The position numbers and the translations under genes were made by a program. From a virus, in the IMG/VR virus record IMGVR_UViG_3300044695_004134, positions 64,001-128,000 of that record: a stretch of DNA of 64,000 nucleotides. The stretch is one strand, 5' to 3'. Below are positions 42,692 through 56,939 of this stretch, one piece after another; position 1 is the first letter of the stretch, and each line of letters begins with the position of its first letter. The notes beneath the pieces are model-generated. The model ran no database searches. It had not been told where the DNA came from and saw only the letters and a list, made by a program, of their open reading frames with translations.

Positions 42692-43315
42692 TTATGCTCC
42701 TAATACATGTAGAGCATGTTCATAGTGTTTGATGCGGTCTTCTAAACCAATCGTTCCGCCATTGATACGCTTCGTGAGTGTAACGATATCACCTTTGTCT
42801 GCCCATTGATTCAGGTTGTTTGTTTCCCAGAACCAACAGGCCGATTGTGCGGCGCCTTCAAATGTAGCAAGATATTCTGAGGCTTCATCTGGAGATATAT
42901 GTAGTGATGCGGCAAACCAAGTATAGTTCTGTTTACCGGTTAACTGAATGAGTCCACGACCACAGTATTTGTAGCCGTCACCTGATGCTTCGTCTCCGTT
43001 ACCCATACGGCTTGCATAAACACGATTTGCGATAGCTTCTTGCTTATTTGGACGTGAGCAATATTCGTTAGCGATTGCATCATCGGGAAAATACTTAGGA
43101 AAAATCTTACGTAGCGTAGCTGGCTTATAATTTAGATTTTCTTTGAGTGCAGTGAAACCACCAGATTCGTGGGCACACTGTGCAATGAATGCGGCTATAC
43201 GCTGTGGTGTATTGATTTCATAATCTGGCAATAATTGTGCCAAAGCGCCATGCCAATGTTCAACATATGGATTTTTTGGAAGTAGTTGTTTTAATTGTTG
43301 TAATGTTAGTTCCAT
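42692..43315 (-). CDS. Endolysin, glycoside hydrolase family 19
   Basis: FIAQCAHESG, ENLNY, GRGLIQLTGK, INGG. Confidence 0.92.
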   Translation of the reverse strand: MELTLQQLKQLLPKNPYVEHWHGALAQLLPDYEINTPQRIAAFIAQCAHESGGFTALKENLNYKPATLRKIFPKYFPDDAIANEYCSRPNKQEAIANRVYASRMGNGDEASGDGYKYCGRGLIQLTGKQNYTWFAASLHISPDEASEYLATFEGAAQSACWFWETNNLNQWADKGDIVTLTKRINGGTIGLEDRIKHYEHALHVLGA

Positions 43316-43578
43316 TATTTTAATCCTTCAAAAATGTTCTTTTGTATTTGATACCATTCAATCCATGCATCATTTTTCACAGCACATGTATAATATTCAG
43401 TATAATTCGTGGTGATAGTTTTTGAAATGTCACTTAGTTTCGCTTCATCATTAACTTTATTTAATTGTGGACATTTTACTAATAAATGCTGAGGTACTTC
43501 AGGAAACTTTGCAACAACTGGAACTGTGGTGGAACAACCAGTGAGTAGTGCAACAAATAAAATGGTTAGATATTTCAT
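43315..43578 (-). CDS. o-spanin-like lipoprotein
   Basis: Lipobox LTGC; Pro-containing. Confidence 0.75.
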   Translation of the reverse strand: MKYLTILFVALLTGCSTTVPVVAKFPEVPQHLLVKCPQLNKVNDEAKLSDISKTITTNYTEYYTCAVKNDAWIEWYQIQKNIFEGLK

Positions 43579-44027
43579 TTTGGTGCCTCTGCCGCTTTGT
43601 TGTGCATCTGTATAAATTCTTTTGGAATTTCACACTCACCACCAGGTAAAAACTTTGTGTCGTATTTGACTATTTCTTTATCGACATATTTGATAATATC
43701 TTGGCCACGTTCTTTGACAATTTGTGTCTTTGTCACGACCTTTGTTTCTATCTTTACATTTTCTTTCACGGATTCAACTTCAGCCGCTTGAATCTTTGCT
43801 TCAAGTTCTTTAACCTTGGCTAACCACGCTTCCTCATTTGAAATGGCACCGGACATGTATGTACCCAACACTATGAGTATGATTGAACCAATTTGTATGG
43901 GTGTTTTATAAATGTAAATTGCTGGAAGTGGAATGAATCTGAGTAAGTAGGTTACAGCAAGGCCAACAAGACCTATAGCAAGTATGGCATAAAAAAACCA
44001 GAAAGGTAACCACTTAAGTATCCACAT
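43575..44027 (-). CDS. i-spanin-like protein
   Basis: N-terminal TM segments, coiled coil, coupled to the lipoprotein gene. Confidence 0.7.
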   Translation of the reverse strand: MWILKWLPFWFFYAILAIGLVGLAVTYLLRFIPLPAIYIYKTPIQIGSIILIVLGTYMSGAISNEEAWLAKVKELEAKIQAAEVESVKENVKIETKVVTKTQIVKERGQDIIKYVDKEIVKYDTKFLPGGECEIPKEFIQMHNKAAEAPK

Positions 44028-44028
44028 T

Positions 44029-44217
44029 TTACATCTTTGGAGTCTTACGTGTAAATGTTGGTGCCATCACGACACGCCTTTTCTTTTTCAAATTCACACC
44101 AGGTTCTCCACCTTTTTCACCCGTGCCGGCGATGGCGCCCGTGGAGACTACATTGGACGGTCCAGTAGATCCACCAACGGCACCGTCCTCCAACATGAAT
44201 TGCTTGAATGTTTTCAT
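44029..44217 (-). CDS. Small predicted internal head peptide
   Basis: CTS-like N-terminus MKTFKQFMLE. Confidence 0.65.
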   Translation of the reverse strand: MKTFKQFMLEDGAVGGSTGPSNVVSTGAIAGTGEKGGEPGVNLKKKRRVVMAPTFTRKTPKM

Positions 44218-44600
44218 ATCTTTCTTAGTATCTCAGCCACATTCATATCGATAAGTATATCGGAAGAAATTATATCTTTTCCGTTTATACCTTTGATTGA
44301 ATCTGGCATATAATTTAGATAAATTAAAAATGTTTTTAGAACATCATAATCAACTTCATCAATTCTAAAAAACAATATCCTTGTTGCTGGTTCTGCACCA
44401 AATACATTATAAAGCAAAATCAAATGATTTAATATTAAACGTTCTTTAAGAGACTTTGTGATTTTGTAACGCCTGAAAAGTCTTTTTAGATATTTCGTGC
44501 GTTTCAAATCTCCCTCAAATTCACTCATGACATAATGTGGTGAATTATATGCCTTCATGGCATACATCATAAAATTGTCTTCTGTCAAATCATCGATCAT
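44214..44600 (-). CDS. Conserved T4-like phage protein
   Basis: KERLILNHLILLYNVFG motif. Confidence 0.8.
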   Translation of the reverse strand: MIDDLTEDNFMMYAMKAYNSPHYVMSEFEGDLKRTKYLKRLFRRYKITKSLKERLILNHLILLYNVFGAEPATRILFFRIDEVDYDVLKTFLIYLNYMPDSIKGINGKDIISSDILIDMNVAEILRKI

Positions 44601-44633
44601 AATGATAAATGGGTGACTTACGCCACCCAAATA

Positions 44634-45182
44634 TTAAATAATAACTGCGCCGTTGCCAGTCATACTGCCTGCCGCAACCAATGTTTCATATTGTGTGCGA
44701 TTAGCACGACCACCCATTGTTACTGTGAATGCGGCATTTCCGGAAACAGGAACTGCTGTAGGTGTAGTCAGGTATAGACCACCAGTGTTAATAGTGATAG
44801 ATAGTACTGCACCATTCTGTGCAACAGCGACTGTTGCATTAGCGGCTGTGTTACCTGTACCACCATCAGAGAATGTTACGAAACTGTTTGTTCCAAAAGC
44901 GCCTGCGTTTGCACTGATAGAAAGAACAGGACCCATACCAGCGGTTCTTTGAACCCAACCAGCATGTGCCATTTTCGTTGCGGCAGGTGTTACTTGTGTG
45001 TTTGATGCTTCTTCAGTATCGACACCATAAACACCGACTGCCACAGAAAATGCTTGTGCTACGTTAGCATTAGCAAAAATTACGTTAGCATTTGCACGTG
45101 TTGGTGCTAAGTTTAAAGCGGTGCCTGCATAAATTGGTACGCCGGTGTTTGCATCGGTCATTGTCCAGAAAGCTGTTGACAT
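44634..45182 (-). CDS. Probable virion structural protein
   Basis: A/G/T/N/V-rich; HAGWV and ETLVA motifs; late-promoter-like AATAAATA at 45215-22. Confidence 0.65.
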   Translation of the reverse strand: MSTAFWTMTDANTGVPIYAGTALNLAPTRANANVIFANANVAQAFSVAVGVYGVDTEEASNTQVTPAATKMAHAGWVQRTAGMGPVLSISANAGAFGTNSFVTFSDGGTGNTAANATVAVAQNGAVLSITINTGGLYLTTPTAVPVSGNAAFTVTMGGRANRTQYETLVAAGSMTGNGAVII

Positions 45183-45217
45183 TTTTAATTTCTCCTTGAA
45201 AGAATTCTATTTACTAT

Positions 45218-47245
45218 TTATTGTTTCTGTGAATTGGGTCTGGTCTTAAGAACAGGCTCGATTTCAACGGTGTCACGTGGCTTTCCTGTCATAGTAGTGC
45301 CACCCTGTAATGTAATTTTGGCTGTGGGTAATTTACCACCCTTATCAGTTTTTTCCCAATCATACATGCTTTCATTTTTACCCTTCTTTTTATAGATGGA
45401 TTTAATGATGCGTGCAGATTTCATGTTCTTTTTACGGTGTTCCGATTCCATAGCCTTGACGGAATTTGTAGCTGACATTGGTGAATCTTCGATGCCACCA
45501 ATACCCTCTTGCACAACGTCTTCTTTGACAGACTTCCAACCACCACCTTTTGACTTATACCATTTAGATGCCCAACCGTTTGCATATGCAGAAGGATAAA
45601 CATCAAACTTGGAACGTGCCATTGATTTTGCTCTCGACCAAAGTGCTGGATTCGTTGGACTATTTTTTTCGTCCATTTGTTCAGCTTCTTCATTTTTTGG
45701 AACACAATCGGGTACCATTTTTCCACCCTTCATTTTCATTCCAACTTTTTTGTGAGTGTCCCAACATGCTTCATCAACTTCTTCTTCACTGAGTTTACCC
45801 TTGCCGTAATTTGAAACATTAACGGGTTTACCGCCCTTGCCTGCTCTGTCTGCAACTGGATCATGTCTTCTCTTTGTTGCAACAGCGGCCGCACGTTCAC
45901 TCTTACTGAGTTCAGAGCGTTTTTCTTTTGACATGCATTTTGGTTTTGGTTCACCTGGTTCTCTGGCGCACGGACCTGCTACCTCACCTTTTGAATTGAT
46001 TCTTTTCCAATCACCTTCTGGATCAGTCTTGCTGAACCACTTACGCAAGTCTTCACGTGTGATGTGACTATCAAGTTCTCCATTGTCGTTTTGATTTTTC
46101 AGTTCGTTGATTTTTTTAGCATCATTATCAAACTGTTTTCTAGTAGCTTTCATTATACCAGAAAAGCGTTTGTTACCTTTTGCAACATCACCAGCTTTAT
46201 CAGCGGCAGATGCTTGAGCACCAGCGGCTTTCTTGTAACGACCAAGAAGGTCGGAAGAAAGTTCCTCGATATGTTCAACTTCTTCTGAATGATATTGTTT
46301 TTGAATCTGATTACCATATGCGCTGATATCCAACTTCTTAGGAGTTTTGTCGGCATATGTACCCAAACGTTTGTCCGCATCGGCACGGTTGATACCCTTA
46401 GAACGCTTATTGGCTGTCGCATGATATTCTTTACTGCCAATTTCACCGGCATGACGAGCCACTGCATTTGCGCCGAGTGATTTGTGTGCGGCAGTTTTGT
46501 AACTTTGAAGTGTAGTTGGTTTCAATTCATCAATACGTTCAATTTCCTCTTTGATTGCAACAATTTTATTGTACATGTCCATAGACAATGCACCTTCACC
46601 ACGCATGTTGATTAGATTCTCTACAACTTTGTGTAGGTCCATATCAGTCTTTGCATCTTCACGTGCATACTCCAGAACACGAATTAACAATGGAATGTCC
46701 ATTGTTACGGTATCTTTTTCATCAACCGCTTCTTTCACTGCTTTCTTTTCTTCATTCCAATCATCACCACGCTCACCCATACCCGAGGTTTCTTTCATGT
46801 GGCGCATCTTGAAAATTCTGAATTCTGAAGAACGTGAGTATGCTTTCTTTTGATTTCCGTCCATAGACAAAGGATTCAAACCCTTTGACTTAATGAAAGA
46901 CATTAGAAGACCTGTGCCTGCTTCATCGAGTTGTTCAGTTTCTTCTGTTTTCAGATTTTGCTTATCACGGTCAAAAGTATGACCGGTTTTGTAACGCTTG
47001 AATGCATTTGAACGTGCATATGAAGAACGCTGTGCAAACGTCATAAACTCTGGATTGAATCCAAGTGAACGGATGTACTTCATCAAAAGGCCGTCCTCAT
47101 TTAGGGCTTCCTCTTTGACGGGTTGTGCATATTTTGCAGACCAAGGCTCCATTGGATCCTCGTATGGTGAATCGCCAAGTTTGCCCATAACAGACTCTTT
47201 CTTGGCCTTCAACATATCCTTGACTAATTTACCAGCTTTGCTCAT
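45218..47245 (-). CDS. Modular polyprotein of basic modules with acidic linkers (predicted internal head protein)
   Basis: Repeated EE..(L/I)DE linkers separating K/R-rich modules. Confidence 0.7.
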   Translation of the reverse strand: MSKAGKLVKDMLKAKKESVMGKLGDSPYEDPMEPWSAKYAQPVKEEALNEDGLLMKYIRSLGFNPEFMTFAQRSSYARSNAFKRYKTGHTFDRDKQNLKTEETEQLDEAGTGLLMSFIKSKGLNPLSMDGNQKKAYSRSSEFRIFKMRHMKETSGMGERGDDWNEEKKAVKEAVDEKDTVTMDIPLLIRVLEYAREDAKTDMDLHKVVENLINMRGEGALSMDMYNKIVAIKEEIERIDELKPTTLQSYKTAAHKSLGANAVARHAGEIGSKEYHATANKRSKGINRADADKRLGTYADKTPKKLDISAYGNQIQKQYHSEEVEHIEELSSDLLGRYKKAAGAQASAADKAGDVAKGNKRFSGIMKATRKQFDNDAKKINELKNQNDNGELDSHITREDLRKWFSKTDPEGDWKRINSKGEVAGPCAREPGEPKPKCMSKEKRSELSKSERAAAVATKRRHDPVADRAGKGGKPVNVSNYGKGKLSEEEVDEACWDTHKKVGMKMKGGKMVPDCVPKNEEAEQMDEKNSPTNPALWSRAKSMARSKFDVYPSAYANGWASKWYKSKGGGWKSVKEDVVQEGIGGIEDSPMSATNSVKAMESEHRKKNMKSARIIKSIYKKKGKNESMYDWEKTDKGGKLPTAKITLQGGTTMTGKPRDTVEIEPVLKTRPNSQKQ

Positions 47246-47248
47246 TGC

Positions 47249-48277
47249 TTAGTCCTTTTTAGCGGCCTTCGTTGCTGTTGCATAAATTACAGATTTCGCA
47301 TCTTTACCGTAACGCTCTTTGAAACCTGCAAGAGATTTTTTCATCCCCTTAACGATACGTTCTTTTTCACCAGTTTCACCTTTAGTTAGAGTGCGTTCAT
47401 CAACTTGTTCAACTTCTTCTTTGTTTAGACGAGCAACAGCACGATGTATTCCTTGATTTCTAACTTTCATCTTATGTTTAAATGGCGCTCTAGCTGCGGT
47501 CACTGCATCAGCGGCTGTCTTTAAACCTGCTTGTACTGCATCATGTTTACGTAAAGGATTTTTATTTCTACCTTTTAATGGGTCAAAACCTCCCGTACCA
47601 GAGTTGGTTTTTGCCATTGCTGTTCTTAAAGCAGAATGTACACCCGTGAAGTTTTGGTCATGCTGAAAGTTTTTAGAAAAATCTTTATTAGCAGCATCCT
47701 TGTAACGCTTAAGAGTGTTTTTGCTTAGTTCATCAAGCTGTTCATATTCTTCAGTTTGCATAAAGTTTTCGATATCTTCCGCAGTAAATTCAAGTTCATC
47801 AACTTCTTCCTTAACGTTACCTGCAACGTCTATCATCACTTTCTTTGGAGCAAATGGATTAGAAGTTTTACCTTTAACACGACCAGCGAGTGTATCTGTC
47901 GTTACTTTATCAGGATCAATTTCTTCTTTTTTCACTGGTTCATCATCTTTAACAGGCTTCCTGCTATAAACAGTTCCTGTGGAGATTTTTTTAGAATCAA
48001 ATCCAGCTTTTTCACCCGGTTTGGTAGGAATCTGACTCTTGTAATTTTTATAGTCGAAAGGATTGTTCGCTTCTTCTACACTTTCTTCTTTCATTGGCTT
48101 CTTTTCACCACGAAGAATTTTGAAGTCGTGAGCATCAATCTTATTATTCTTATTTTTATCAATCTTGTGTTGATTGCCCTTGAGTGCTTCCATCTTAGCC
48201 TTAAAATCGGCTTCATTGATATCTTTGATGAGGTCAGCAACAACATCGGTTTGGGTGAATACGTTTTTGTTGAACAT
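47249..48277 (-). CDS. Modular polyprotein (predicted internal head protein)
   Basis: EEYEQLDELSKNTLKRY, EEVEQVDERTL, EESVEEANN linkers. Confidence 0.7.
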   Translation of the reverse strand: MFNKNVFTQTDVVADLIKDINEADFKAKMEALKGNQHKIDKNKNNKIDAHDFKILRGEKKPMKEESVEEANNPFDYKNYKSQIPTKPGEKAGFDSKKISTGTVYSRKPVKDDEPVKKEEIDPDKVTTDTLAGRVKGKTSNPFAPKKVMIDVAGNVKEEVDELEFTAEDIENFMQTEEYEQLDELSKNTLKRYKDAANKDFSKNFQHDQNFTGVHSALRTAMAKTNSGTGGFDPLKGRNKNPLRKHDAVQAGLKTAADAVTAARAPFKHKMKVRNQGIHRAVARLNKEEVEQVDERTLTKGETGEKERIVKGMKKSLAGFKERYGKDAKSVIYATATKAAKKD

Positions 48278-48293
48278 TTGTGTCTCCGTTAAA

Positions 48294-48587
48294 TTAGCAG
48301 TTCCATTTGCGTAGTGATAATGCTTTTCTAGTTGGTCTACCTTTTTCGTCCTTCATTGGACCTGGCATTCCACCCATTCTAGCACAGAATGATTTTCTTC
48401 TATTGGCAGCTTTGCTTCCGGGTTTTAATTTGGAAGGTGGCGTAGTTACAGCCATCGATAACTTAGAACCTGGATTTTCTCTACGATAGGAAGCAATACC
48501 CTTCTGGTTCAAACCACCTTCTGGGTTTTTACCTTCTTTGCGCTTCCAAGCGGCAGATTCTTCTAGAAATTTTTTGAAACTTATCAT
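48294..48587 (-). CDS. Small basic protein with CTS-like N-terminus (DUF6321-like)
   Basis: MISFKKFLEE; RRKSFCARM...WNC. Confidence 0.7.
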   Translation of the reverse strand: MISFKKFLEESAAWKRKEGKNPEGGLNQKGIASYRRENPGSKLSMAVTTPPSKLKPGSKAANRRKSFCARMGGMPGPMKDEKGRPTRKALSLRKWNC

Positions 48588-50497
48588 TTCTTTTTCTTCT
48601 TTGTTGGAGGATTAACGGGTATCTTATTCAGAGTATCCATTGGTTCTTTATTCGATGGTCCGTAATAGCCACCGGTGACTCCCATTTCTGTGCTAGGAGA
48701 ATCAATTGATTCTTTTCTAAACTTATTGAAAGATTTGCGTGTCACCTCTGCGGTACTATCATATTTATGTTCAGTCTGTTCTCTATATGTCACTTGACCA
48801 AGACCAGCCATTGGATAAACTGTACCAGAACCACGTGTATCATATTCGGGAGATACACCTGCCACCTTTAAGACTTTGCCTGCTTCGGCGTTTGAGGTTT
48901 TCTGCCTCTTGGATTTTTGTTTGTCTGCGTCTTGCTGGAAGCGGGGTTCTTTTGCTGGACCTTTGGTGGTGATGGTTGGGCTACTGCTTTCGTAGGTTCT
49001 GAAGGTGTAGCTGGAGTTTGAGGTAATTCCTCCGTCTTTAATGTCGTCTGGCTTACCTTGTCTTCTGACAAGTTCGCAACTTGGACAGATGTTGTCGGCA
49101 AGTCTGTAGCGTTTGTAAGAACCGCTTTTTTGGTCGGACCGTCCAGAGGATGTGGCTTTGTCTCCACAGGTGCAACTTGGTCCTTCGGCAAGAACAGCTT
49201 TGCTATTTGTTTTAGTTTCTGAAACATATTTTTTGTATCCCTTTTCTAATGTAGGTTTTGTTATAAAGTTTTCAAACATCTTATTGATGTTGTGTTTTTT
49301 GTGCCTAACCCTCCAAGATTCGGCGATTTCATTCTCAACGGGGGTATCAAAGAACCAGTTAGTCATTTCATATATGATAGAAATGTCTTCCTCTTTCTCT
49401 GACGTTTCAATTTCATTTGCTTCATTCAAGTCGATAGAGTTGTCAAACTCCAAATACTTTCTGAATTCCTGATTGAATTTCTCTGCAACAAGTTGTGTTA
49501 CTTCCCATCTTTCTTGGCGAACAGATTCAGCCATCATTCTTTCATGGCCCTCGTTACGCTTTCTTGATGATTCATTTGTTGTGTTAACAAAAACCATCAT
49601 AGTTTCGTAGCCGAGTTCTTCGAGTTCTTCACGAATGGCAATAATGTTGTATTGTTCGTTTGTTGTACCAGTGATAATCAAAGGCTGACGCTGGCGGATT
49701 GCTTCACGGCGAGTGTCACGTGAAAACTCATAGAGTTTATGTTTGTCGTTGAGAATTGATATTGCTGTCGTTGAAGTAATTTCAACTGCATTTTGTTCAG
49801 CAATAGCTTCACGTATAACAATATCTTTGCCTGAACCTGGACCACCAGAAATAAAAATAGCTTTGAACATTCCGTGGTTCACGTTTTCGTGTATACCCAT
49901 ACCTTTGCGAACATCACGGAATAATTCTTTGGCATGTTTCTCTTGCACATGTGGTGGAATACCCTGACGGAAAGAAGCAAAATCACCACTGTTTGCATGT
50001 TCACGCATTTTCGATGCTGACATACCTTCTGCACCCTCGGCATCGGGGTCACGGTGACCGGCAGACTTTACCTCAATCTTTTTGAAGTTGTAAAGTTTAC
50101 CTGGACCCTCACCATTGTATTGGTGGAGTTTCTTTTCATATTCCGGAATACGGTCTGAGCCTGCAACCATTACTAAATGGTCATGACCCATAGCATGTAG
50201 TCTAGCCGCATGTTGCAAGAATGTTGGCATTTCTTTGCTGGAAGATTCGATGTTAGCACCAGGAAAGAAACGTTTTGCGTGTAGCAATTTACGTTTAACG
50301 TCTAATGGATTCTTCTTAGCATCCACAGAATGTGAAATAACAACATGGTGAGGTGCATTATAATCGTGTGCGATTTCTTGAACACGGTTAACCAACTTTT
50401 CGTGACCAATAGTTGGTGGATTCATACGTCCAAAAGCCATAACAACAGGCTTGTTTGTTTGCATGTCTTCTTCTATTTTTTGTAAAAACTTTTTCAT
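48584..50497 (-). CDS. HIGH-family nucleotidyltransferase fused to a P-loop kinase
   Basis: FGRMNPPTIGH, VAGSDR, MSASKMR; GGPGSGKD. Confidence 0.85.
   Translation of the reverse strand: MKKFLQKIEEDMQTNKPVVMAFGRMNPPTIGHEKLVNRVQEIAHDYNAPHHVVISHSVDAKKNPLDVKRKLLHAKRFFPGANIESSSKEMPTFLQHAARLHAMGHDHLVMVAGSDRIPEYEKKLHQYNGEGPGKLYNFKKIEVKSAGHRDPDAEGAEGMSASKMREHANSGDFASFRQGIPPHVQEKHAKELFRDVRKGMGIHENVNHGMFKAIFISGGPGSGKDIVIREAIAEQNAVEITSTTAISILNDKHKLYEFSRDTRREAIRQRQPLIITGTTNEQYNIIAIREELEELGYETMMVFVNTTNESSRKRNEGHERMMAESVRQERWEVTQLVAEKFNQEFRKYLEFDNSIDLNEANEIETSEKEEDISIIYEMTNWFFDTPVENEIAESWRVRHKKHNINKMFENFITKPTLEKGYKKYVSETKTNSKAVLAEGPSCTCGDKATSSGRSDQKSGSYKRYRLADNICPSCELVRRQGKPDDIKDGGITSNSSYTFRTYESSSPTITTKGPAKEPRFQQDADKQKSKRQKTSNAEAGKVLKVAGVSPEYDTRGSGTVYPMAGLGQVTYREQTEHKYDSTAEVTRKSFNKFRKESIDSPSTEMGVTGGYYGPSNKEPMDTLNKIPVNPPTKKKKK
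48868..49227 (-). CDS. Candidate overprinted gene in an alternative frame
   Basis: AAGGGA 10 nt upstream; amphipathic N-terminus; P/K/T/Q-rich tail. Confidence 0.4.
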   Translation of the reverse strand: MFQKLKQIAKLFLPKDQVAPVETKPHPLDGPTKKAVLTNATDLPTTSVQVANLSEDKVSQTTLKTEELPQTPATPSEPTKAVAQPSPPKVQQKNPASSKTQTNKNPRGRKPQTPKQAKS

Positions 50498-51690
50498 ATG
50501 TTTCTGATTCCTGCAAAGTTTCTACGGGAAAATTCTGCACGATTAACAAATTTATCTGATTCTTTTCCATGATGAAAGACATAACCTTCTGGATTAGCCG
50601 CTTCACCACCATGTTCATGTTGAAACTCTTGGTGCTGATTCATTACATTAATGAGCACATTTTTTGCTTTCTGTAAATGCTGGTGCATCTTAAACAAATT
50701 ATTGTAGTGTTTTCGGTTTCGGTCAACTTTACCCAATTCATCTTTTAAATCATTTTGTTTAGAAGTTCGGTTCTTTTCAACTTTCAGCTTGTCGATTTCT
50801 TTATTCTTCTTATTTTCTAACCAATTGGAAAAATTCTGATGGTTTGGCGTTTCACCTGTACGAACAGTGTGGTTCATATAAGTTTCTAAGTGGCCACCGG
50901 CACCGTGATGTGTTGATGTTCCTGCATACATGTCCGAACCATGTGTATCATGCACAGATTGTGCGGCCGCAATGTGTTTGTTGAATTCAGCACGATCTTT
51001 AGGACCGAAATGTACTTTTGATGTATCCATTCTAGGATCAACCGAGAATACATCAGAGTGTGGTTTGAAATTTTCATGGTCAACTTCATGTGAAGCATTC
51101 AGGCTTCCCGCATCTTTACCTGTATATGAAAGGTGTGTAACAACACCAATCTTTGCTTTTTTAACTGAGTCACCATGTGTTCCATGTGCAGTATAGGTCA
51201 AGCCGGATGGATTTGGATGAAAAGAAACACCACCACTCTTTGTTGGCGTTTTATCTTCGTGTGAGAACATCATGTCACCTTGATATACACCTTTTTTAGG
51301 TGCAACTTTGGGTAAATGCTTTAGTGCATCTCCTAATTTCTTTACTAAACCAGGTGCGTGTCCGTGGTTTTTTTCGATATCAGCAGATGTGTAATTAATT
51401 TTTGGTGTCTTATTGAATGCTGATTTTGATGCTACAAAAAACTTACCTGTCTCTGGGTGATGGCCATACACAATAGCAGGAGAACCATCATACTTTGTTG
51501 TAAGTTCGGAAGTTTTTTTACCCTGCTGTATATGTTGCGCGGCCGCAGTTAATGAAACGATAGCATGTTTAGCACCACTCTCTCCGTTCTGGAGTGGGCG
51601 ATCTTCTATGTGCGTAAGATGTTTAATCTGACGGCTTGCTCCTTCTTCAGGATCTTCTTGCTCTTTTAAAAATATATTAAATGTTTTCAT
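50494..51690 (-). CDS. ATP-dependent ligase-superfamily protein (DUF6267-like)
   Basis: TKYDGSP, VASKS, YQGD, EGYV, KFV in ligase motif order. Confidence 0.65.
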   Translation of the reverse strand: MKTFNIFLKEQEDPEEGASRQIKHLTHIEDRPLQNGESGAKHAIVSLTAAAQHIQQGKKTSELTTKYDGSPAIVYGHHPETGKFFVASKSAFNKTPKINYTSADIEKNHGHAPGLVKKLGDALKHLPKVAPKKGVYQGDMMFSHEDKTPTKSGGVSFHPNPSGLTYTAHGTHGDSVKKAKIGVVTHLSYTGKDAGSLNASHEVDHENFKPHSDVFSVDPRMDTSKVHFGPKDRAEFNKHIAAAQSVHDTHGSDMYAGTSTHHGAGGHLETYMNHTVRTGETPNHQNFSNWLENKKNKEIDKLKVEKNRTSKQNDLKDELGKVDRNRKHYNNLFKMHQHLQKAKNVLINVMNQHQEFQHEHGGEAANPEGYVFHHGKESDKFVNRAEFSRRNFAGIRNI

Positions 51691-51691
51691 A

Positions 51692-53029
51692 TTAGTGAAC
51701 TTTGGCTGGAATTACGTTCCAACCATGTACGTCCGATTTGAATGCATTGCTTTTAGTTTTAGGTGAATAGTGTGCTAAGGTGGTCAAACTTCCGTCTTTT
51801 TCAACCTTATGTATGCTCACTCTATCACCATGTTGTGTGGCGGCATATTTCGAATTTTTATTTTTAAACACTCTATTCAGAGGTGATTCACTTCCTGAAG
51901 TAACAGTTGCATGTACTTTAGTTAAAGTGTCACCTTTAGCATGTATTTTTGACCAAGGCATACTTGTTGTTGGAGTCAAATGATTCTGCAACATTTTTCC
52001 AATCATATTATGACCTTCTTGACCAATATTATTTATTAAATGTGATAGGTGGTCATGAAATTCCGATGAAATTTTTGTTTTAACTGGTTTTGCTTTTTCG
52101 TTTGCCGTGGATTCCAAATCTGTCATTTTTTGATCGGATTTCTTTTTCTTCCTTTCAACGTCTAGTATTCTTGATCTATTGGCCGCAGAAATATCACCAT
52201 AACCCATGGCCTTATGTACTTTTCGTAATCCATCTCTGGAAACTTTTTCCGAATCAAGCACCCTGGTTTCGTGGTGTAAAATACCCTTCATATCAATAGC
52301 AGGATTCTTCGCTGTGATAGCACTAGATTTACTTGACGATTTTAACGAAAAACCTTCATAGTGTGAATCATCAGGTGTTCTGGCGAGTGAAGAATTTTTA
52401 ACTTCAACTGCAATGTCTGATGGATTTTCTTGCGAGTCGTTATGTTTACCTTTAGTGAAACGTCCAATATCACCAAGTTTTGATGTGTGGCCAACATCAG
52501 TGATCTTTGCATCAGGACCATGTTTTAACATTATTGCTTCTAAGGCGGCACTAGCCATCTCTTGGCCATGTCGTTTTCTAATACCAACTTGCTGTGCATT
52601 TTTTCCCACGGCTAGTTTACGAATAGCTTCTTCGTGTGGTTGAGTTTCTTTATAATGTTCATCAGTTCCATATGTACCCAAATCTTTATGTTTGTGGCCT
52701 AACATATGAATGGCAGCAGAGTATTCTGAGATTTTTCCTGCGGAATCTGGTGTCAATCCAGCTTCTTCATGTAAAGATTCGGAATCGTAACCCGCTTTTT
52801 CTAAGTCCGACTTTGATGGTGTATCTGATCCATTCGACCAGTGTACGAGTTTGGTTACCTGATTTAAATCTTTATTAAAAAATACCGCGTGTTTGCCGCG
52901 GACATTATTAAACACATGAACATTAATATCATGACCATCTGAAGTTTTATAGGAATGGTGTGGCTTTAGTGCCGAGTATTTGTGGTCTTCACCGAAACTT
53001 TCATTAAGCCAGTGTCTAAAGGGTTTCAT
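51692..53029 (-). CDS. Hypothetical protein with CTS-like N-terminus and possible PD-(D/E)xK-like nuclease motif
   Basis: MKPFRHWLNE; NPSDIAVE...GFSLK. Confidence 0.55.
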   Translation of the reverse strand: MKPFRHWLNESFGEDHKYSALKPHHSYKTSDGHDINVHVFNNVRGKHAVFFNKDLNQVTKLVHWSNGSDTPSKSDLEKAGYDSESLHEEAGLTPDSAGKISEYSAAIHMLGHKHKDLGTYGTDEHYKETQPHEEAIRKLAVGKNAQQVGIRKRHGQEMASAALEAIMLKHGPDAKITDVGHTSKLGDIGRFTKGKHNDSQENPSDIAVEVKNSSLARTPDDSHYEGFSLKSSSKSSAITAKNPAIDMKGILHHETRVLDSEKVSRDGLRKVHKAMGYGDISAANRSRILDVERKKKKSDQKMTDLESTANEKAKPVKTKISSEFHDHLSHLINNIGQEGHNMIGKMLQNHLTPTTSMPWSKIHAKGDTLTKVHATVTSGSESPLNRVFKNKNSKYAATQHGDRVSIHKVEKDGSLTTLAHYSPKTKSNAFKSDVHGWNVIPAKVH

Positions 53030-53080: not shown

Positions 53081-53088
53081 TATTTAGT
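53081..53088 (-). promoter_or_regulatory. T4-type late-promoter-like motif ACTAAATA
   Basis: About 50 nt upstream of the 53029 start. Confidence 0.5.
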
Positions 53089-53809
53089 AACCCCAAATCT
53101 TAATATCCACCCATTTATCCATATCTTCTCTAATCAAGGAATGCTTTCCAATGTTAAATTTACCATCCGTAAAAGGGTGGTCAATATCAATACGTTCAAC
53201 TGGTATAGAATTTCTTAGTAGTTGCTCATGTAGCATTTCGTGGCCACAAAGAGGAACACCGAGGCGCCTCAAATTTAAATATGTTGAAGCGTAAACATTC
53301 ATTGTGTCTGGATCAGCAATGGCAAATTGGTCATTCAATAATGGATTAGGTCCATCAGTGTCTTTCGATATATACACTTTGCCTTTTTCCAGAGAAGAAA
53401 AGTCTATGACTTTATTGAGTGCTAGGTCAAACCTACTTCGTATAACAAAGTCATATTTTACATCATTTAAAACTTGATGGCGAATTCTCAGGTCGTTTGC
53501 TTTATAAATTGAATAAAACATTGACGTACAGAAATTAGCTGGATGTGAAGCATTCGGAACAAACATGTCGGAGTTTGTTGTTGCCGGTAATGGCATATCG
53601 TATGCCAGATATATTGGATCGTAGATGAAATTTATATCTTCATACATCTTCATCTGGATTATACCACCCTGTGGTTTCCATGTATGGCAGAAAACATCTA
53701 CATTGTAAATATCTAAAAGATTTCTCTTAATGTAGTTTTTTGCTTGAAATAAACTTCTAGCTTGTCCCGACAGACACAGTGCTAGTTTCAGAGATGAATT
53801 TTTCGACAT
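53084..53809 (-). CDS. Putative glycosyltransferase-like protein
   Basis: LCLSGQAR, DVFCHTW, SMFYSI, YDFVIRSRFD; start uncertain. Confidence 0.6.
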   Translation of the reverse strand: MSKNSSLKLALCLSGQARSLFQAKNYIKRNLLDIYNVDVFCHTWKPQGGIIQMKMYEDINFIYDPIYLAYDMPLPATTNSDMFVPNASHPANFCTSMFYSIYKANDLRIRHQVLNDVKYDFVIRSRFDLALNKVIDFSSLEKGKVYISKDTDGPNPLLNDQFAIADPDTMNVYASTYLNLRRLGVPLCGHEMLHEQLLRNSIPVERIDIDHPFTDGKFNIGKHSLIREDMDKWVDIKIWGY

Positions 53810-54236
53810 AATCAGTACAGACTCCAATAAGGTTTCGACCCTTTATATATTCCCAATAGGAAGGACACCTTTCAGGCATGACCGCAACTGATTTGCTTGT
53901 TAATTTTTTTCCGGGATATGTCCAAATAACATCATTTGATGTTAGTGTGAAATCATCTTCTTGGTGCCAAAAATAAACATACTTGAATGGTCTACCAATT
54001 AATTCGTGTAGTGCATCTAAGTTTTTACAGTGTAGCCAAAGGCCTTGTTTGCCGATGAATTCTTCTTTGACCATATATTGTGGCTCATCATGCCCCAGCC
54101 ACCACTGGTCTTTTATCCACCAAAGATCAATCTCACAGTCATATCCTTTTTCCAACGCCAATAGGATTTGACTGGGACGATTTTCTTTTCCTTTGTCGGG
54201 TCCTTCAAATAGACCACGATGTGCAATCATTTTCAT
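53757..54236 (-). CDS. GDPD/PI-PLC-like phosphodiesterase
   Basis: IAHRG, EIDLW, LGHDEP, HCKN, GVCTD. Confidence 0.75.
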   Translation of the reverse strand: MKMIAHRGLFEGPDKGKENRPSQILLALEKGYDCEIDLWWIKDQWWLGHDEPQYMVKEEFIGKQGLWLHCKNLDALHELIGRPFKYVYFWHQEDDFTLTSNDVIWTYPGKKLTSKSVAVMPERCPSYWEYIKGRNLIGVCTDYVEKFISETSTVSVGTS

Positions 54237-54946
54237 TGATAGAGACTCTTGTGTTTGTATTCACCAAGTGGTGTATGCATAATCGTTTTGTTAATCATAA
54301 ATTCTTCCCATGGCAATCCAAGTCTGCGGATGAATTGTTCAGAGATAACATGTGGACACAAAAGACCGGTTTCATTATAAACTTGTGGTAAGAAATGCAA
54401 CACTTTTGAAAATAGACACATTGAGAAGAAATTACCAACTTGAATCATGTCAGATGTTCCCTGACCCATATGGTTTCTATAGCCGAGTGTATAGAATTTT
54501 TGTGGATTGAAATCTGGTAATGGTTCATTGAAAGTTAAATCTGGACGCATACGAATGACTAAATCATATTGCTTACCAGTTTTAAACATATGGTCTTCAA
54601 GCATTAACATACCTGATCCAAGTTTATACAACATGGAGACAATGTTCTTGGGTACATGATAAAAGTTTTTATAAAACTCGGCACGTTTAGCAAAGTCTTC
54701 TTTGTGGTCATTATAATCTTCAACAATGAAATCGATGGGTTTGTATGTTTCAATGATTGCTTCATTATCAATCATTGGTGCATCATCAACAATTCCAGCT
54801 TCGCTGTGTGGGTCCCAGTATGCTTCATCGCCCCATGTGTGTATGAAAATATCTGGATTATATCTGTCAACGATATGTTCTTTAAAATTGGGATAAACTT
54901 GTTCCCAACAACGCATGTGACCTGTCAATACTACTGCTACGTTCAT
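54233..54946 (-). CDS. Putative glycosyltransferase-like protein (paralogue of 53084)
   Basis: VLTGHMR, DIFIHTW, SMLYK, YDLVIRMRPD. Confidence 0.6.
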   Translation of the reverse strand: MNVAVVLTGHMRCWEQVYPNFKEHIVDRYNPDIFIHTWGDEAYWDPHSEAGIVDDAPMIDNEAIIETYKPIDFIVEDYNDHKEDFAKRAEFYKNFYHVPKNIVSMLYKLGSGMLMLEDHMFKTGKQYDLVIRMRPDLTFNEPLPDFNPQKFYTLGYRNHMGQGTSDMIQVGNFFSMCLFSKVLHFLPQVYNETGLLCPHVISEQFIRRLGLPWEEFMINKTIMHTPLGEYKHKSLYQ

Positions 54947-55554
54947 GTTTTCCTCACGAAATATAAATTATCTTCATTCACTTGTGACGTAATTTTATCA
55001 ATCACAAATCCATTCTGTTCCAAAAAGTCAAGTGCTTCCTGTTTGGTGTGTTGTCCTTTATATAGACTAACTTCCTCTGACTGTGGAACTTCAACAACAC
55101 CAGATTGTACCATCGATATTTTTTCACCAAGGCCTTTGAGTACAGCTAAGTCTGAACCTTGTGCATCAATATGTAAGTGGTCGATACAAGTAATTTCGGA
55201 TGCAAAAATTGTTAACCAAGTATCAAGCCTATAAACATTAATTTTCTTTGAGCCACGTACAACAAAGTCTGTGCGACCCGGCCATGTTTCGGATAAATTG
55301 TCTGAAAAATCATTAAGTGATGCTGAACCAGTGTCACCTTCAACCATATGGAAATCTGCTTCACCATCAAAATCGGAGATAGCTTGTTCGTAAACATGAT
55401 AACGGTCTTTCATGTTTCTCGCTTCTGCCGCAATACGTAGCAGTCTAGCAAGTTCAGGTGTAGGTTCAAACGCATAACAAATAACATTTGGATTATGCTG
55501 TGTCACATTAAGCGAGTCTTGGCCGTGATGGGCACCAACATCAAATAAAATCAT
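54943..55554 (-). CDS. FkbM-family methyltransferase
   Basis: DVGAHHG, AFEP, HIDAQGSD. Confidence 0.85.
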   Translation of the reverse strand: MILFDVGAHHGQDSLNVTQHNPNVICYAFEPTPELARLLRIAAEARNMKDRYHVYEQAISDFDGEADFHMVEGDTGSASLNDFSDNLSETWPGRTDFVVRGSKKINVYRLDTWLTIFASEITCIDHLHIDAQGSDLAVLKGLGEKISMVQSGVVEVPQSEEVSLYKGQHTKQEALDFLEQNGFVIDKITSQVNEDNLYFVRKT

Positions 55555-55556
55555 TT

Positions 55557-56939
55557 TTACTCCTTGTGATTGTCCAAGAAGTAATTCAGGTCTTCAGGTG
55601 TACCGATACCCCACATCTTCTCAATATTTTTAACACGAATCTTTTTACCATCACCGATTGCCTCATTGAACACGGGGCAAGTATAGAATTCACCGTTGGT
55701 TCGAATGTTCTTAGAAATCATTTGTTCAGCATACTTAACATAGTCTGAACCGTGACGCCAGTAGTAGATACCAACTGTTGCTTCATCTGAAATAACTTTC
55801 TTCTCTGCAACTTCGGATACAAAACCATTTTCATCAAGTTTTGCGTAGGACCATTTTGGATGTGTTGCTTTGAATGTTAGAATACCACCATCGATAGAAT
55901 CCGCTGAGAATGCATACATACATTCATTTGAGTTCCATTCAACGAATTGGTCTGAGTTTGCCATAACCAAAGGTGCATCATTGTCGATGTGTTCTTTAGC
56001 AAGCAAAGTCGTACAGGCGGCACCTTCCGTGATACCATCAACTTGCACAATCTTGCAACCAGGTGCAATTAGATTCAACAGGTACTTCAAATTATATGTT
56101 TCATAATGATCCTTTTGGACCAAGAAAATATAGTTTGCTTCGATGTTCAAGTTTTCAACCACAACTTGAATCATCGGCTTACCACGGACTTCAATGAGTG
56201 GTTTTGGGAAAGTGTAACCAGCTTGTGCGAAACGTGAACCAGCGCCAGCCATCGGAATCAAAACGTTCAATTTCTTGTCTCTCCATGGTAGAGACTTTTT
56301 GCTTGTACCTTCAATTGTATTCATAAGGTCATAAATCCTTTGCATCATATGTTCAGAGTTAACTTCTTTTGCATTTTCGACCGCAAGCAAATGTGCTCCA
56401 GAATCTAATGCACCTTGGCGTCCAATATGACTATCTTCCACAATAATTGTACTTTTAGGAAGTGCATTTAGCGCAGTCATACATTTCCAGTACATTTCTG
56501 GATATGGCTTCGTGCGTGATACATCCTCATTACTGACAAAATAATCAACTTCATCCATCACACCAATACTTAGTAGAGATAATTTTACAGTTTCACGAAT
56601 AGAGTTTGATGCAACTGCAATTTTATAACCACGTGCTTTAATCTGACGGAAGATAGTCTGTAGCAAATATTCTTTACAGAAGCCACGAACAAGATTAAAT
56701 GTTGCATCTTGTTTATCTTTCCAAACTTGGTCATATACGGATACAGGTAGACCTTTTTGCTCGGTCAGCATCTTCAGTTTTTTGGTCGTATTCAGACCAT
56801 CATATTTACTGAGATGTTCCTCACGTGTGATTACGAATTCTTCACCGACTTTGCGTAGTGCATCATTCAACGCATCATAATGCAACTCACGTGAATCGAT
56901 TAAGACACCATCAAGATCAAAAATAACCAATTTACTCAT
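55557..56939 (-). CDS. HAD phosphatase fused to a sugar-nucleotidyltransferase-like domain
   Basis: FDLDGVLID, KPYP, VEDS; IPMAGAGSRF, PKPLI, GTPEDL. Confidence 0.85.
   Translation of the reverse strand: MSKLVIFDLDGVLIDSRELHYDALNDALRKVGEEFVITREEHLSKYDGLNTTKKLKMLTEQKGLPVSVYDQVWKDKQDATFNLVRGFCKEYLLQTIFRQIKARGYKIAVASNSIRETVKLSLLSIGVMDEVDYFVSNEDVSRTKPYPEMYWKCMTALNALPKSTIIVEDSHIGRQGALDSGAHLLAVENAKEVNSEHMMQRIYDLMNTIEGTSKKSLPWRDKKLNVLIPMAGAGSRFAQAGYTFPKPLIEVRGKPMIQVVVENLNIEANYIFLVQKDHYETYNLKYLLNLIAPGCKIVQVDGITEGAACTTLLAKEHIDNDAPLVMANSDQFVEWNSNECMYAFSADSIDGGILTFKATHPKWSYAKLDENGFVSEVAEKKVISDEATVGIYYWRHGSDYVKYAEQMISKNIRTNGEFYTCPVFNEAIGDGKKIRVKNIEKMWGIGTPEDLNYFLDNHKE

Follow-up and report, generated by a model that had tools for sequence, protein, structure and literature searches.

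A 9-kb block of genes with a common leader

The window analysed here is a 64,000-nucleotide stretch from the 166-kb genome of an uncultured T4-like phage. Five genes on its minus strand, all within positions 44029-53029, encode proteins that begin with the leader M-x-x-F-x-x-(F/W/K)-(L/I/M)-x-E. Four other genes of this block, encoding proteins of 342, 675, 182 and 138 amino acids (aa), have no leader. From its upstream end, the block is composed as follows:

53081-53088, minus strand: ACTAAATA, a site described earlier as 'late-promoter-like', 51 nt before the ATG of the 445-aa gene
51692-53029, minus strand: 445-aa protein, leader MKPFRHWLNE followed by a core starting SFGEDHKY (ORF)
50494-51690, minus strand: 398-aa DUF6267 protein, leader MKTFNIFLKE (ORF, Pfam)
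48584-50497, minus strand: 637-aa protein, leader MKKFLQKIEE, nucleotidyltransferase, putative P-loop kinase and long tail (ORF, PHROG)
48294-48587, minus strand: 97-aa DUF6321 protein, leader MISFKKFLEE (Pfam DUF6321, E 1.3e-24)
47249-48277, minus strand: 342-aa charged protein, no leader (ORF)
45218-47245, minus strand: 675-aa charged modular protein, no leader (ORF)
45215-45222, minus strand: AATAAATA, canonical T4-type late promoter, 32 nt before the 182-aa gene
44634-45182, minus strand: 182-aa acidic protein, no leader (ORF)
44214-44630, minus strand: 138-aa DUF7207 protein, no leader (Pfam, E 5e-37)
44029-44217, minus strand: 62-aa protein, leader MKTFKQFMLE (ORF)

An earlier note on this DNA had reported five N-termini with a Glu at residue 10; all five lie on the minus strand where it placed them, and they stand far above chance. 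Each of the five leaders begins at Met1 of the longest ORF, and each start has an RBS or is translationally coupled, the coupled genes being separated by -4 to +1 nt. Among 1498 candidate starts in the whole genome, a strict version of the pattern is seen four times for 0.043 expected, and a loose version five times for 0.79 expected, all on one strand and within 9 kb. A position-weight scan of the whole genome, which the note had proposed, separates the five tagged ORFs (18.5-22.4 bits, the best being the 97-aa DUF6321 protein) from the next ORF at 5.5 bits and from all others, which score below 0. This sixth match, MKSLKDFLQRE, is encoded between the genes for the portal and the protease. 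The predicted mature forms of the five tagged proteins are all basic (pI 8.9-11.1) and include enzymes of 43-71 kDa, not small proteins only. The note read the leaders as T4-type capsid-targeting sequences (CTSs) on consecutive genes: this reading is strongly supported by the head machinery, conserved positions and virion homologues described below.

The proposed late promoter at the head of the block did not hold up. The site ACTAAATA is present but non-canonical, and part of it coincides with the stop codon of the preceding gene; nor is CTAAATA overrepresented in the genome (6 seen versus 8.9 expected). The actual late promoters of this phage, found upstream of gp22, gp23 and tail genes, read NATAAATA, at a distance of 20-33 nt from the ATG. 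Within the block, just one late promoter is of the canonical T4 type, AATAAATA, whose form and spacing are those seen upstream of gp23; none was found before the four upstream tagged genes.

Conservation of the leader and of the T4 head machinery

The T4 CTS is MKTYQEFIAE (PMC8442874), in which residues 4 and 7 serve targeting and residues 8 and 10 processing, according to Mullaney and Black (1996) as cited in PMC9026906. The genome analysed here encodes the corresponding head proteins, with matches above cut-off to Peptidase_S77 (gp21, 103 bits) and T4_CASP (gp22, 235 bits), as well as Gp23 and Portal_T4. Its gp23 contains LNE followed by Ala at the position where T4 gp23 is cut.

Position 4 holds Phe in 205 leaders from a set of 208 unique ones and Tyr in the other 3, although the pattern used to gather them itself demanded Phe/Tyr4 and Glu10. 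Position 7 is Phe, Tyr or Trp in 190 and position 8 is Leu, Ile or Val in 206, while positions 2, 3, 5, 6 and 9 have entropies of 2-3.4 bits. The DUF6267 orthologues, collected without this filter, carry the leader in 80/80 related loci, with Phe4 and Glu10 in 80/80 each. The synonymous codons of these orthologues vary (TTT 22 and TTC 22; GAA 29 and GAG 15), and such freedom at the codon level, with the peptide positions fixed, indicates selection on the peptide. The leader DNA is not conserved among relatives. The conserved positions persist across unrelated families and across DUF6267 proteins that are only 30-45% identical, and the 80 related loci contain 221 motif-bearing ORFs on the gene strand versus none on the opposite strand.

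The leader behaves as a detachable module. Of 150 diverse DUF6267 proteins, 59 begin with it, and there are others whose first residues are those of the core. Proteins in which DUF6267 and the nucleotidyltransferase are fused have the leader at their N-terminus only, while the split genes of our phage have one leader each. In AF2 models of the 398-aa and 445-aa proteins it lies apart from the fold, forming a short helix or a disordered segment. There are exceptions to the consensus: each of the 38 unique motif-matching orthologue leaders of the 637-aa family has a non-aromatic residue, Lys, at position 7, and residue 8 of the 62-aa protein is Met. Further afield, a homologue in the non-T4 jumbo phage PBECO4 has no leader, a soil T4-like phage, DLP6, has MMKFTQFLAE, and the canonical leader is absent from the homologues in pelagiphage HTVC008M.

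The tagged proteins

The 398-aa protein belongs to Pfam family DUF6267 (E 1.5e-92) and finds no match in the PDB by sequence or profile search. Across 90 sequences of the family, the motif I sequence, TTKYDG, has invariant K66 and G69 and a D68 conserved in at least 90%; E368, G369 and K380 are also invariant. The AF2 model (pLDDT 93.5) shows the leader as a helix at residues 4-12 followed by a disordered linker. Its best VIA matches are RNA ligases (5cot, Z 8.3; 1xdn, 7.9; Trl1, 7.6; T4 Rnl2, 7.1), and RNA and DNA ligases together span Z 8.3-5.3 over 150-209 residues, matches that are consistent in kind and below the level that excludes chance. Foldseek places DNA ligases at the top, with E values of 0.035-0.1, again below that level. 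We predict from the model a fold of the ligase (covalent nucleotidyltransferase) superfamily with a helical insert.

The 637-aa protein matches PHROG cytidyltransferase families (E 1e-65 and 3e-44). Residues ~18-207 form an HxGH nucleotidyltransferase domain with the motif GRMNPPTIGH, in which G23, R24, P27, T29, G31 and H32 are invariant, and GMSASKMRE aligns to the second, ISxTxxR-type motif of MJ0951. More general models match weakly: TIGR00125 gives 18.1 bits for a cut-off of 27.7, and the PDB profile hits, PPAT and MJ0951, have E 0.0075-0.04. The 'NMNAT' label that homologous proteins carry in the literature was attributed by homology only. Residues ~215-345 contain a Walker A sequence, GGPGSGKD, in a P-loop kinase region scoring below cut-off (AAA_33, 23.5 bits versus 27; Zeta_toxin, 18.5 versus 22.3). 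The C-terminal part is long and of low complexity, with a CxC...CxxC stretch. An internal copy of the leader, RKSFNKFRKE, had been pointed out in this protein; it is indeed present (residues 587-596), but its eighth residue is Arg instead of the Leu or Ile required for processing, and only ~17 of 80 orthologues have it. The suggestion that full-size enzymes are tagged is supported by the predicted ligase fold and by the HxGH nucleotidyltransferase with its putative P-loop kinase.

The gene for the 445-aa protein is a rare accessory (1 of 80 related loci), and its product matches no Pfam or PHROG family. Among 60 homologues, E10 is conserved in at least 90%, and D205, S228 and K230 are invariant; we infer that these three may form a catalytic triad. 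The AF2 model (pLDDT 86.5, residues 1-12 disordered) retrieves HinP1I at the top of both structure searches, with weak scores (Foldseek E 0.2; VIA Z 5.6 and rmsd 5.7 across 221 residues), followed by a scatter of MspI, Cas4-like, Dna2 and EcoRV structures, and a protein atlas gives RE_HaeIII as a lead. The protein may be a PD-(D/E)xK nuclease. The two remaining tagged proteins would be small and very basic once processed (97-aa protein, 9.5 kDa, pI 11.1; 62-aa protein, 5.2 kDa, pI 10.6), resembling the T4 internal proteins. In relatives, the slot of the 62-aa gene is occupied by one, two or three genes with a leader, which vary.

Homologues in virion proteomes

Do proteins with this leader reach the virion? 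Three homologues of the 637-aa protein, all with a leader, have been found by mass spectrometry in purified cyanophage particles: SSM1_190 of S-SM1 (MKKFSAFLNE; 25 counts, PMC3037559), SSCSM1_91 of S-SCSM1 (MKSFLQFLKE; PMC9602691) and gp154 of S-CREM2 (MKNFSSFLTE; PMC10665884). Identity over the nucleotidyltransferase domain is 40% to the first two and 35% to the third. The S-PM2 homologue is leaderless and absent from virion detections. Syn9 gp184 has a leader (MKKFSAFLSE), and no peptides of it were reported in the 2007 Syn9 virion analysis (Table S8). Several neighbours detected in virions of S-SM1, S-SCSM1 and S-CREM2 have no leader, so either the leader is not the sole route into particles or some detections reflect carry-over of abundant proteins, against which the authors of the S-CREM2 (PMC10665884) and S-SCSM1 (PMC9602691) studies themselves warn. 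All three proteomic papers (PMC3037559, PMC9602691 and PMC10665884) speculate on carriage in the virion, and none mentions a targeting signal.

A probable capsid-targeting function and its alternatives

We consider it probable, from the evidence above, that the five proteins carry a functional T4-type CTS. The leader would form a ten-residue amphipathic N-terminal helix, of which residues 4 (Phe) and 7 (Phe/Tyr/Trp) would dock the new protein on the gp22-type scaffolding core during prohead assembly. Residues 8 (Leu/Ile) and 10 (Glu) would provide the L/I-x-E site cut by the gp21-type prohead protease, leaving the mature protein in the head with the DNA. The cargo would then comprise the predicted ligase-fold enzyme, the HxGH nucleotidyltransferase fused to a putative P-loop kinase, the rare accessory that may be a PD-(D/E)xK nuclease, and the two small basic proteins.

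The leader could also bring to the prohead core proteins that assist in assembly or scaffolding, as do T4 gp67 and gp68, and that are degraded or expelled at maturation. This would fit the presence of MKSLKDFLQRE between portal and protease, where T4 has the core genes 67 and 68, and the excess of L/I-x-E sites in the 637-aa protein (12 versus 6.0 expected from shuffles, p 0.013). We nevertheless find it unlikely: homologues are detected in mature purified virions, the only L/I-x-E site of the ligase-like enzyme is that of the leader itself, and folded 43-71 kDa enzymes with conserved catalytic motifs would be improbable scaffolds. It is harder still to believe that the helix serves another purpose (to bind a membrane or a partner, to mark the protein for degradation, or to make translation start efficiently) and resembles the T4 CTS by convergence. 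Short Lys-rich amphipathic N-termini are common, it is true, most of the tagged genes have no canonical late promoter, and the genes are translationally coupled. However, the conserved positions are exactly the T4 targeting and cleavage residues, Glu10 is invariant while its synonymous codons vary, the leader occurs in T4-like phages (Kyanoviridae isolates and DLP6) and not in the non-T4 jumbo phage homologue, and tagged homologues are found in virions. That the same four positions are kept across unrelated families, when the other leader positions are randomised and the leader DNA is not conserved, makes it very improbable that the motif is a 5' cassette with no present function, spread by duplication or recombination among neighbours and not yet decayed, even though every copy lies inside one 9-kb block of genes that often fuse and split.

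As to the role of the cargo, the earlier note saw in it a pre-made counter-defence kit injected by the phage, and both injection and a counter-defence purpose can be envisaged; however, PADLOC returned no match, and two of the tagged enzymes belong to conserved, near-core families, not to arms-race genes. More broadly, in marine and freshwater T4-like phages, including most cultured cyanomyoviruses, the CTS might pre-load a kit of ligase-like enzyme, HxGH nucleotidyltransferase and kinase, sometimes with a nuclease, which is injected with the DNA and acts before phage gene expression. We regard this scenario as possible but doubtful. One possible task of such a kit would be to rejoin nucleic acids that host nucleases have cleaved; another would be to replenish a nucleotide cofactor, for instance NAD+. 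If the scenario is true, a 'cyanophage core' gene of unknown role would encode an injected effector of the first minutes of infection.

Comparison with known systems and implications

The tagged proteins share with T4 CTS cargo a ten-residue leader in which residues 4 and 7 are aromatic, residue 8 is Leu/Ile and residue 10 is Glu, a gp21 protease and gp22 scaffold in the same genome, small basic members and a set that varies among relatives. They differ in that the tag sits mainly on 43-71 kDa enzymes of conserved families (DUF6267, T4-GC190) and not only on small hypervariable basic proteins, in having Phe for Tyr at position 4, and in that packaging and cleavage are here predictions. The T4 ADP-ribosyltransferase Alt, like the proposed cargo, is a full-size enzyme carried in the head, trimmed by gp21 and delivered with the DNA, but its enzyme family is unrelated to those of the block, its N-terminal propeptide is 7 residues long, and its C-terminus is processed as well (PMC9026906). 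The ejection proteins of phiKZ-like phages and SPN3US and the Dar proteins of P1 illustrate the route proposed here, with head loading through N-terminal propeptides, cleavage after Glu by a prohead protease and delivery to the host. Their propeptides are mostly longer than 100 residues with the cut motif A/S-x-E (PMC5694885), and their head machinery is only distantly related.

As in T4 Pnk/Rnl1 and fungal Trl1, a ligase-fold enzyme, here a predicted one, stands beside a partner, to which it is fused in many phages, with a putative P-loop kinase in the adjacent gene. However, the structures resemble each other only modestly (Z 7-8), a phosphatase or CPDase domain is lacking, and the partner, an HxGH nucleotidyltransferase, is absent from known RNA repair systems; T4 Pnk and Rnl1, moreover, are not packaged. 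The NMNAT-like/cytidylyltransferase virion proteins (S-SM1 T4-GC190, S-SCSM1 ORF91 and S-CREM2 ORF154) are further counterparts, with the same leader and 35-40% identity to residues 18-207 of the 637-aa protein, which has in addition a putative P-loop kinase domain and a long tail.

So far, the T4 CTS has mostly been viewed as something that T-even coliphages use for their small anti-restriction proteins, and as a phage-engineering tool. In Kyanoviridae and in uncultured phages from water, we find this tag on conserved enzymes and clearly under selection. This would explain why NMNAT-like/cytidylyltransferase enzymes and kinases recur in purified cyanophage particles (2010, 2022, 2023), and virion carriage versus abundant contamination becomes a directly testable question. 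With the leader as a simple sequence rule, head cargo can also be predicted in T4-like phages from metagenomes. For DUF6267, which counts ~1,900 cluster representatives (E up to 0.001, representative library), a probable ligase fold can be assigned.

Leaderless genes of the block

The 342-aa and 675-aa proteins have a repeated module in common, and the 342-aa protein is at most a candidate member of the cargo set. Residues 400-576 of the 675-aa protein are homologous to S-CREM2 gp160, itself detected in virions (Table 3, PMC10665884); its L/I-x-E sites are not enriched (7 seen versus 5.4 expected). The 182-aa gene occupies the place where cyanophage blocks have 'S-layer / head / tail-fibre-like' virion proteins, a link by synteny only, with no significant sequence match to these proteins. 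The 138-aa DUF7207 protein is a conserved syntenic marker of the block (T4-GC198), with homologues in S-PM2, S-SM1, S-SCSM1 and S-CREM2.

Leader-bearing genes of the proposed cargo block

The block at positions 44029-53029 of the window is tightly packed (intergenic gaps of -4 to +35 nt) and carries on its minus strand, in this order, genes of 445, 398, 637, 97, 342, 675, 182, 138 and 62 codons, after which comes a lysis cassette. Five of the encoded proteins begin with a ten-residue leader that reads as a T4-type capsid-targeting sequence (CTS), and these N-termini are as an earlier note on this DNA had written them:

51692-53029, minus: 445-aa protein, leader MKPFRHWLNE
50494-51690, minus: 398-aa protein, leader MKTFNIFLKE
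48584-50497, minus: 637-aa protein, leader MKKFLQKIEE
48294-48587, minus: 97-aa protein, leader MISFKKFLEE
47249-48277, minus: 342-aa protein, leaderless
45218-47245, minus: 675-aa protein, leaderless
44634-45182, minus: 182-aa protein, leaderless
44214-44630, minus: 138-aa protein, leaderless
44029-44217, minus: 62-aa protein, leader MKTFKQFMLE

Over the 1498 possible starts of the whole genome, a strict leader pattern occurs four times against 0.043 expected and a loose one five times against 0.79 expected, all five being the tagged genes of the block. We also scanned the ORFs with a weight matrix built on 208 unique leaders, which is partly circular in that orthologues of the tagged genes are included; the pattern scans do not depend on the matrix. 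With it the tagged genes score 18.5-22.4 bits, the sixth-best ORF, a 235-aa gene, reaches 5.5 bits as the sole other positive score in the genome, and every ORF after it falls below 0.

Head assembly genes

The record (166,193 bp, judged 99% complete, with the window as its bases 64001-128000) encodes a complete T4 head module, matching Portal_T4 (E 2e-177), Peptidase_S77 (103 bits), T4_CASP (235 bits) and Gp23 (477 bits). Among cultured phages, the window's genes have their nearest relatives in T4-like marine myoviruses (Kyanoviridae), in pelagiphage HTVC008M and in a small number of further T4-like phages, the proteins being about 30% identical; by megablast the block matched nothing among phage records, where it has no close DNA relative. 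In the major capsid protein gp23, MGMLNE is followed by ATAGG about 24 residues ahead of the conserved VRRALPNLIA, the place where T4 gp23 is cut after Glu65. The LNE/A at this place argues that the prohead protease of this genome, gp21, very probably follows the T4-type L/I-x-E rule.

The 235-aa gene lies outside the window, at genome positions 952-1659 on the minus strand (L086:952-1659), between the portal and prohead-protease genes, and starts MKSLKDFLQRE. The prohead-core genes 67 and 68 of T4 also sit between portal and protease, and the protein may be an analogue of gp67 or gp68.

Conservation of the leader

For comparison we used 80 related loci from IMG/VR viral metagenomes. All 221 motif-bearing ORFs lie on the coding strand (221/221, none on the opposite strand), and the leader is present in every orthologue of the 398-aa gene (80/80). 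Two residues never change in these orthologues, Phe at position 4 and Glu at position 10. Phe or Tyr stands at 7 and Leu or Ile at 8; the variation (1.1-2.2 bits) falls on 2, 3, 5, 6 and 9. Both synonymous codons of the fixed residues are used freely (TTT 22, TTC 22; GAA 29, GAG 15), which rules out conservation at the RNA level and places the constraint on the peptide. A review of the studies by Black (PMC9026906) reports that amber-suppressor mutagenesis of the leader of T4 IPIII assigned capsid targeting to residues 4 and 7 and processing to residues 8 and 10, Asp at 10 blocking cleavage. The T4 sequence is MKTYQEFIAE (PMC8442874), and its four determinant positions are the same four that are conserved here.

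Conservation of Glu10 reaches at least 90% in the 445-aa family. Some members (P0274, P0281, P0303, P0308) carry a longer leader, M.SLQ..IWLERAGLLKE, instead of the ten-residue one; this alternative also ends in L-x-E, directly before the conserved NFGxDHD core. AlphaFold models place the leader outside the fold both in the 398-aa protein (a short helix at 4-12, then a disordered linker) and in the 445-aa protein (residues 1-12 disordered).

The leader behaves as a module of each polypeptide. Its conservation extends to much more distant sequences: among 150 DUF6267 representatives (30-62% identity), 59 begin with the motif and others directly at the conserved core KLKHLEHxED. DUF6267 is fused to an HxGH nucleotidyltransferase domain in 26 of 43 long representatives, and these fusions carry the leader at the N-terminus only, the linker before GRMNPP being free of such a motif. 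In the window the two domains are encoded by separate, overlapping genes, each with its own leader. Two metagenomic proteins, P0149 and P0265 (1246 and 818 aa), have the reverse order, with the nucleotidyltransferase N-terminal and DUF6267 C-terminal, which strengthens the case for a joint action of the two domains.

The tagged set changes among the relatives. One to three small, variable genes with a leader (59-274 aa) fill the slot that directly precedes the lysis genes, and the 445-aa gene occurs in only 1 of the 80 loci. This likens the block to the internal proteins of T-even phages, where a conserved tag is found on changing cargo (PMC3012670; PMC9026906).

Leaders on virion proteins of cultured relatives

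Gene order in the block corresponds to that of the mazG-to-gp61 region of cyanomyoviruses. In three cultured phages, virion-detected proteins are homologous to the nucleotidyltransferase domain of the 637-aa protein: SSM1_190 of S-SM1 (T4-GC190; 40% identity, leader MKKFSAFLNE), SSCSM1_91 of S-SCSM1 (40%, MKSFLQFLKE) and gp154 of S-CREM2 (35%, MKNFSSFLTE). Homologues in P-SSM2, P-TIM68, S-SSM4, P-RSM1 and ACG-2014f bear the same leader; that of S-PM2 is leaderless and was undetected in virions. Three phages served as controls. In PBECO4, a jumbo phage that is not T4-like, the homologue begins at the enzyme core without a leader; that of the soil T4-like phage DLP6 begins MMKFTQFLAE; and the canonical leader is absent from pelagiphage HTVC008M.

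The authors of these proteomes remark that virions show 'frequent detection' of enzymes of this kind and of kinases, and ask whether carriage or mere abundance is the reason (PMC3037559, PMC9602691, PMC10665884); a search of the texts for 'targeting' or 'propeptide' returned nothing relevant. There is one counter-example: Syn9 gp184 (T4-GC190; L098:24736-25884) has the leader MKKFSAFLSE and yielded no peptides in the Syn9 virion analysis of 2007. Virion detection also extends to leaderless proteins. Residues 400-576 of the 675-aa protein, itself leaderless, have a homologue in S-CREM2 gp160, found in virions, and in S-SCSM1 nearly the whole syntenic block (genes 89-97, L097:26358-33307) is annotated 'virion protein', with the canonical leader on the NMNAT-like gene 91 only. 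Those leaderless proteins may enter the particle by other routes or may be a carry-over of abundant proteins.

Every sequence-level feature of the CTS definition that could be checked was found, and we consider it probable that the five tagged proteins are capsid-targeted cargo processed by gp21. Judged from sequence, the mechanism is that of the T4 CTS system as already described, with presence in heads, cleavage and ejection as its predictions. This phage differs from the textbook case in its cargo, here large conserved enzymes, and in breadth, here cyanomyoviruses and uncultured water phages. Our literature search, with most subscription journals outside its reach, found the CTS linked neither to cyanophages or marine phages nor to these enzymes, and no mention of DUF6267; an earlier description is possible.

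Probable cargo proteins

The 398-aa protein belongs to DUF6267 (E 1.5e-92), with an invariant Lys in TTKYDG and, downstream, E368-G369 and K380. Sequence and profile searches against the PDB gave no match. Its confident model (pLDDT 93.5, pTM 0.90) is closest to RNA ligases, namely the Naegleria nick-sealing ligase (Z 8.3), the trypanosome editing ligase (7.9), fungal Trl1 (7.6) and T4 Rnl2 (7.1); DNA ligases rank after these, and the weak top Foldseek rows are likewise ligases. We read it as a probable enzyme of the ligase superfamily that has a large helical insert; taken alone, the fold scores are not decisive.

The 637-aa protein combines an HxGH nucleotidyltransferase domain (PHROG 'cytidyltransferase', E 1e-65; weak matches to PPAT and MJ0951 profiles), a predicted P-loop kinase domain with GGPGSGKD (AAA_33 and Zeta_toxin slightly under cut-off) and a long low-complexity tail. 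Sequence alone retrieved nothing usable from the PDB, and the 'NMNAT' label given to such domains in the literature comes from homology only. For the 445-aa protein no family was assigned and tblastn gave no match; for its model (pLDDT 86.5) the two structure searches both rank HinP1I at the top, with weak scores (E 0.2; Z 5.6), other PD-(D/E)xK nucleases rank lower, and the protein atlas adds a weak RE_HaeIII lead. A restriction-endonuclease-like identity is thus only a lead. The predicted mature forms of the 97-aa protein (DUF6321; 9.5 kDa, pI 11.1) and the 62-aa protein (5.2 kDa, pI 10.6) are much like T4 internal proteins in size and pI.

The leaderless 342-aa and 675-aa proteins (45218-48277, minus) have a repeated module in common, [IL][DE]EL...L..YK.AA, with three occurrences, and the latter has two copies of GLLM.[YF]I[RK]S.G.NP with L-x-E before each. 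A reading of the two as polyproteins is not supported, L/I-x-E sites not being enriched (2 seen against 2.3 expected in the 342-aa protein; 7 against 5.4 in the 675-aa protein).

Possible role of the cargo

The earlier note read the block as an injected counter-defence kit. Its leader motif is solid, its late promoter and internal motif copy are weak, and its interpretation is supported in part. We regard an injected repair or counter-defence kit as unlikely. PADLOC and NCBIfam returned nothing useful and lend no database support to a defence or counter-defence label, so that a role in counter-defence stands as an idea rather than a result. DUF6267 and T4-GC190, conserved and near-core, argue for a general function early in infection over a strain-specific role in an arms race. 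The latter better suits the rare 445-aa gene and the small genes that vary.

Expression signals and flanking genes

Packaging would need late expression of the tagged genes. The late-promoter-like sequence of the earlier note, ACTAAATA at 53081-53088, is non-canonical in this genome, whose real late promoters read NATAAATA and stand 20-33 nt ahead of the ATG. The only canonical one in the block is upstream of the 182-aa gene, so late expression of the tagged genes is a supposition. Sigma-70 promoter and terminator scans stayed at shuffle level. In the internal copy, RKSFNKFRKE, the position that determines cleavage, 8, is Arg, and only the closest relatives share this copy; we dropped it as a conserved feature.

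Directly downstream of the block lies the lysis cassette:

42692-44027, minus: lysis cassette, encoding the following
minus: 150-aa protein, hydrophobic at its N-terminus, no Pfam match
minus: 87-aa Rz1-like lipoprotein (LysC, 28.7 bits)
minus: 207-aa GH19-like endolysin (24.2 bits, slightly under the cut-off of 25.5)

Upstream, at 53084-56939 (minus), are a DUF7796 gene, an FkbM methyltransferase and a HAD hydrolase with a MobA-like NTP-transferase. This cluster looks like one for sugar or methyl modification, and other glycosyltransferase-like genes take its place in relatives.
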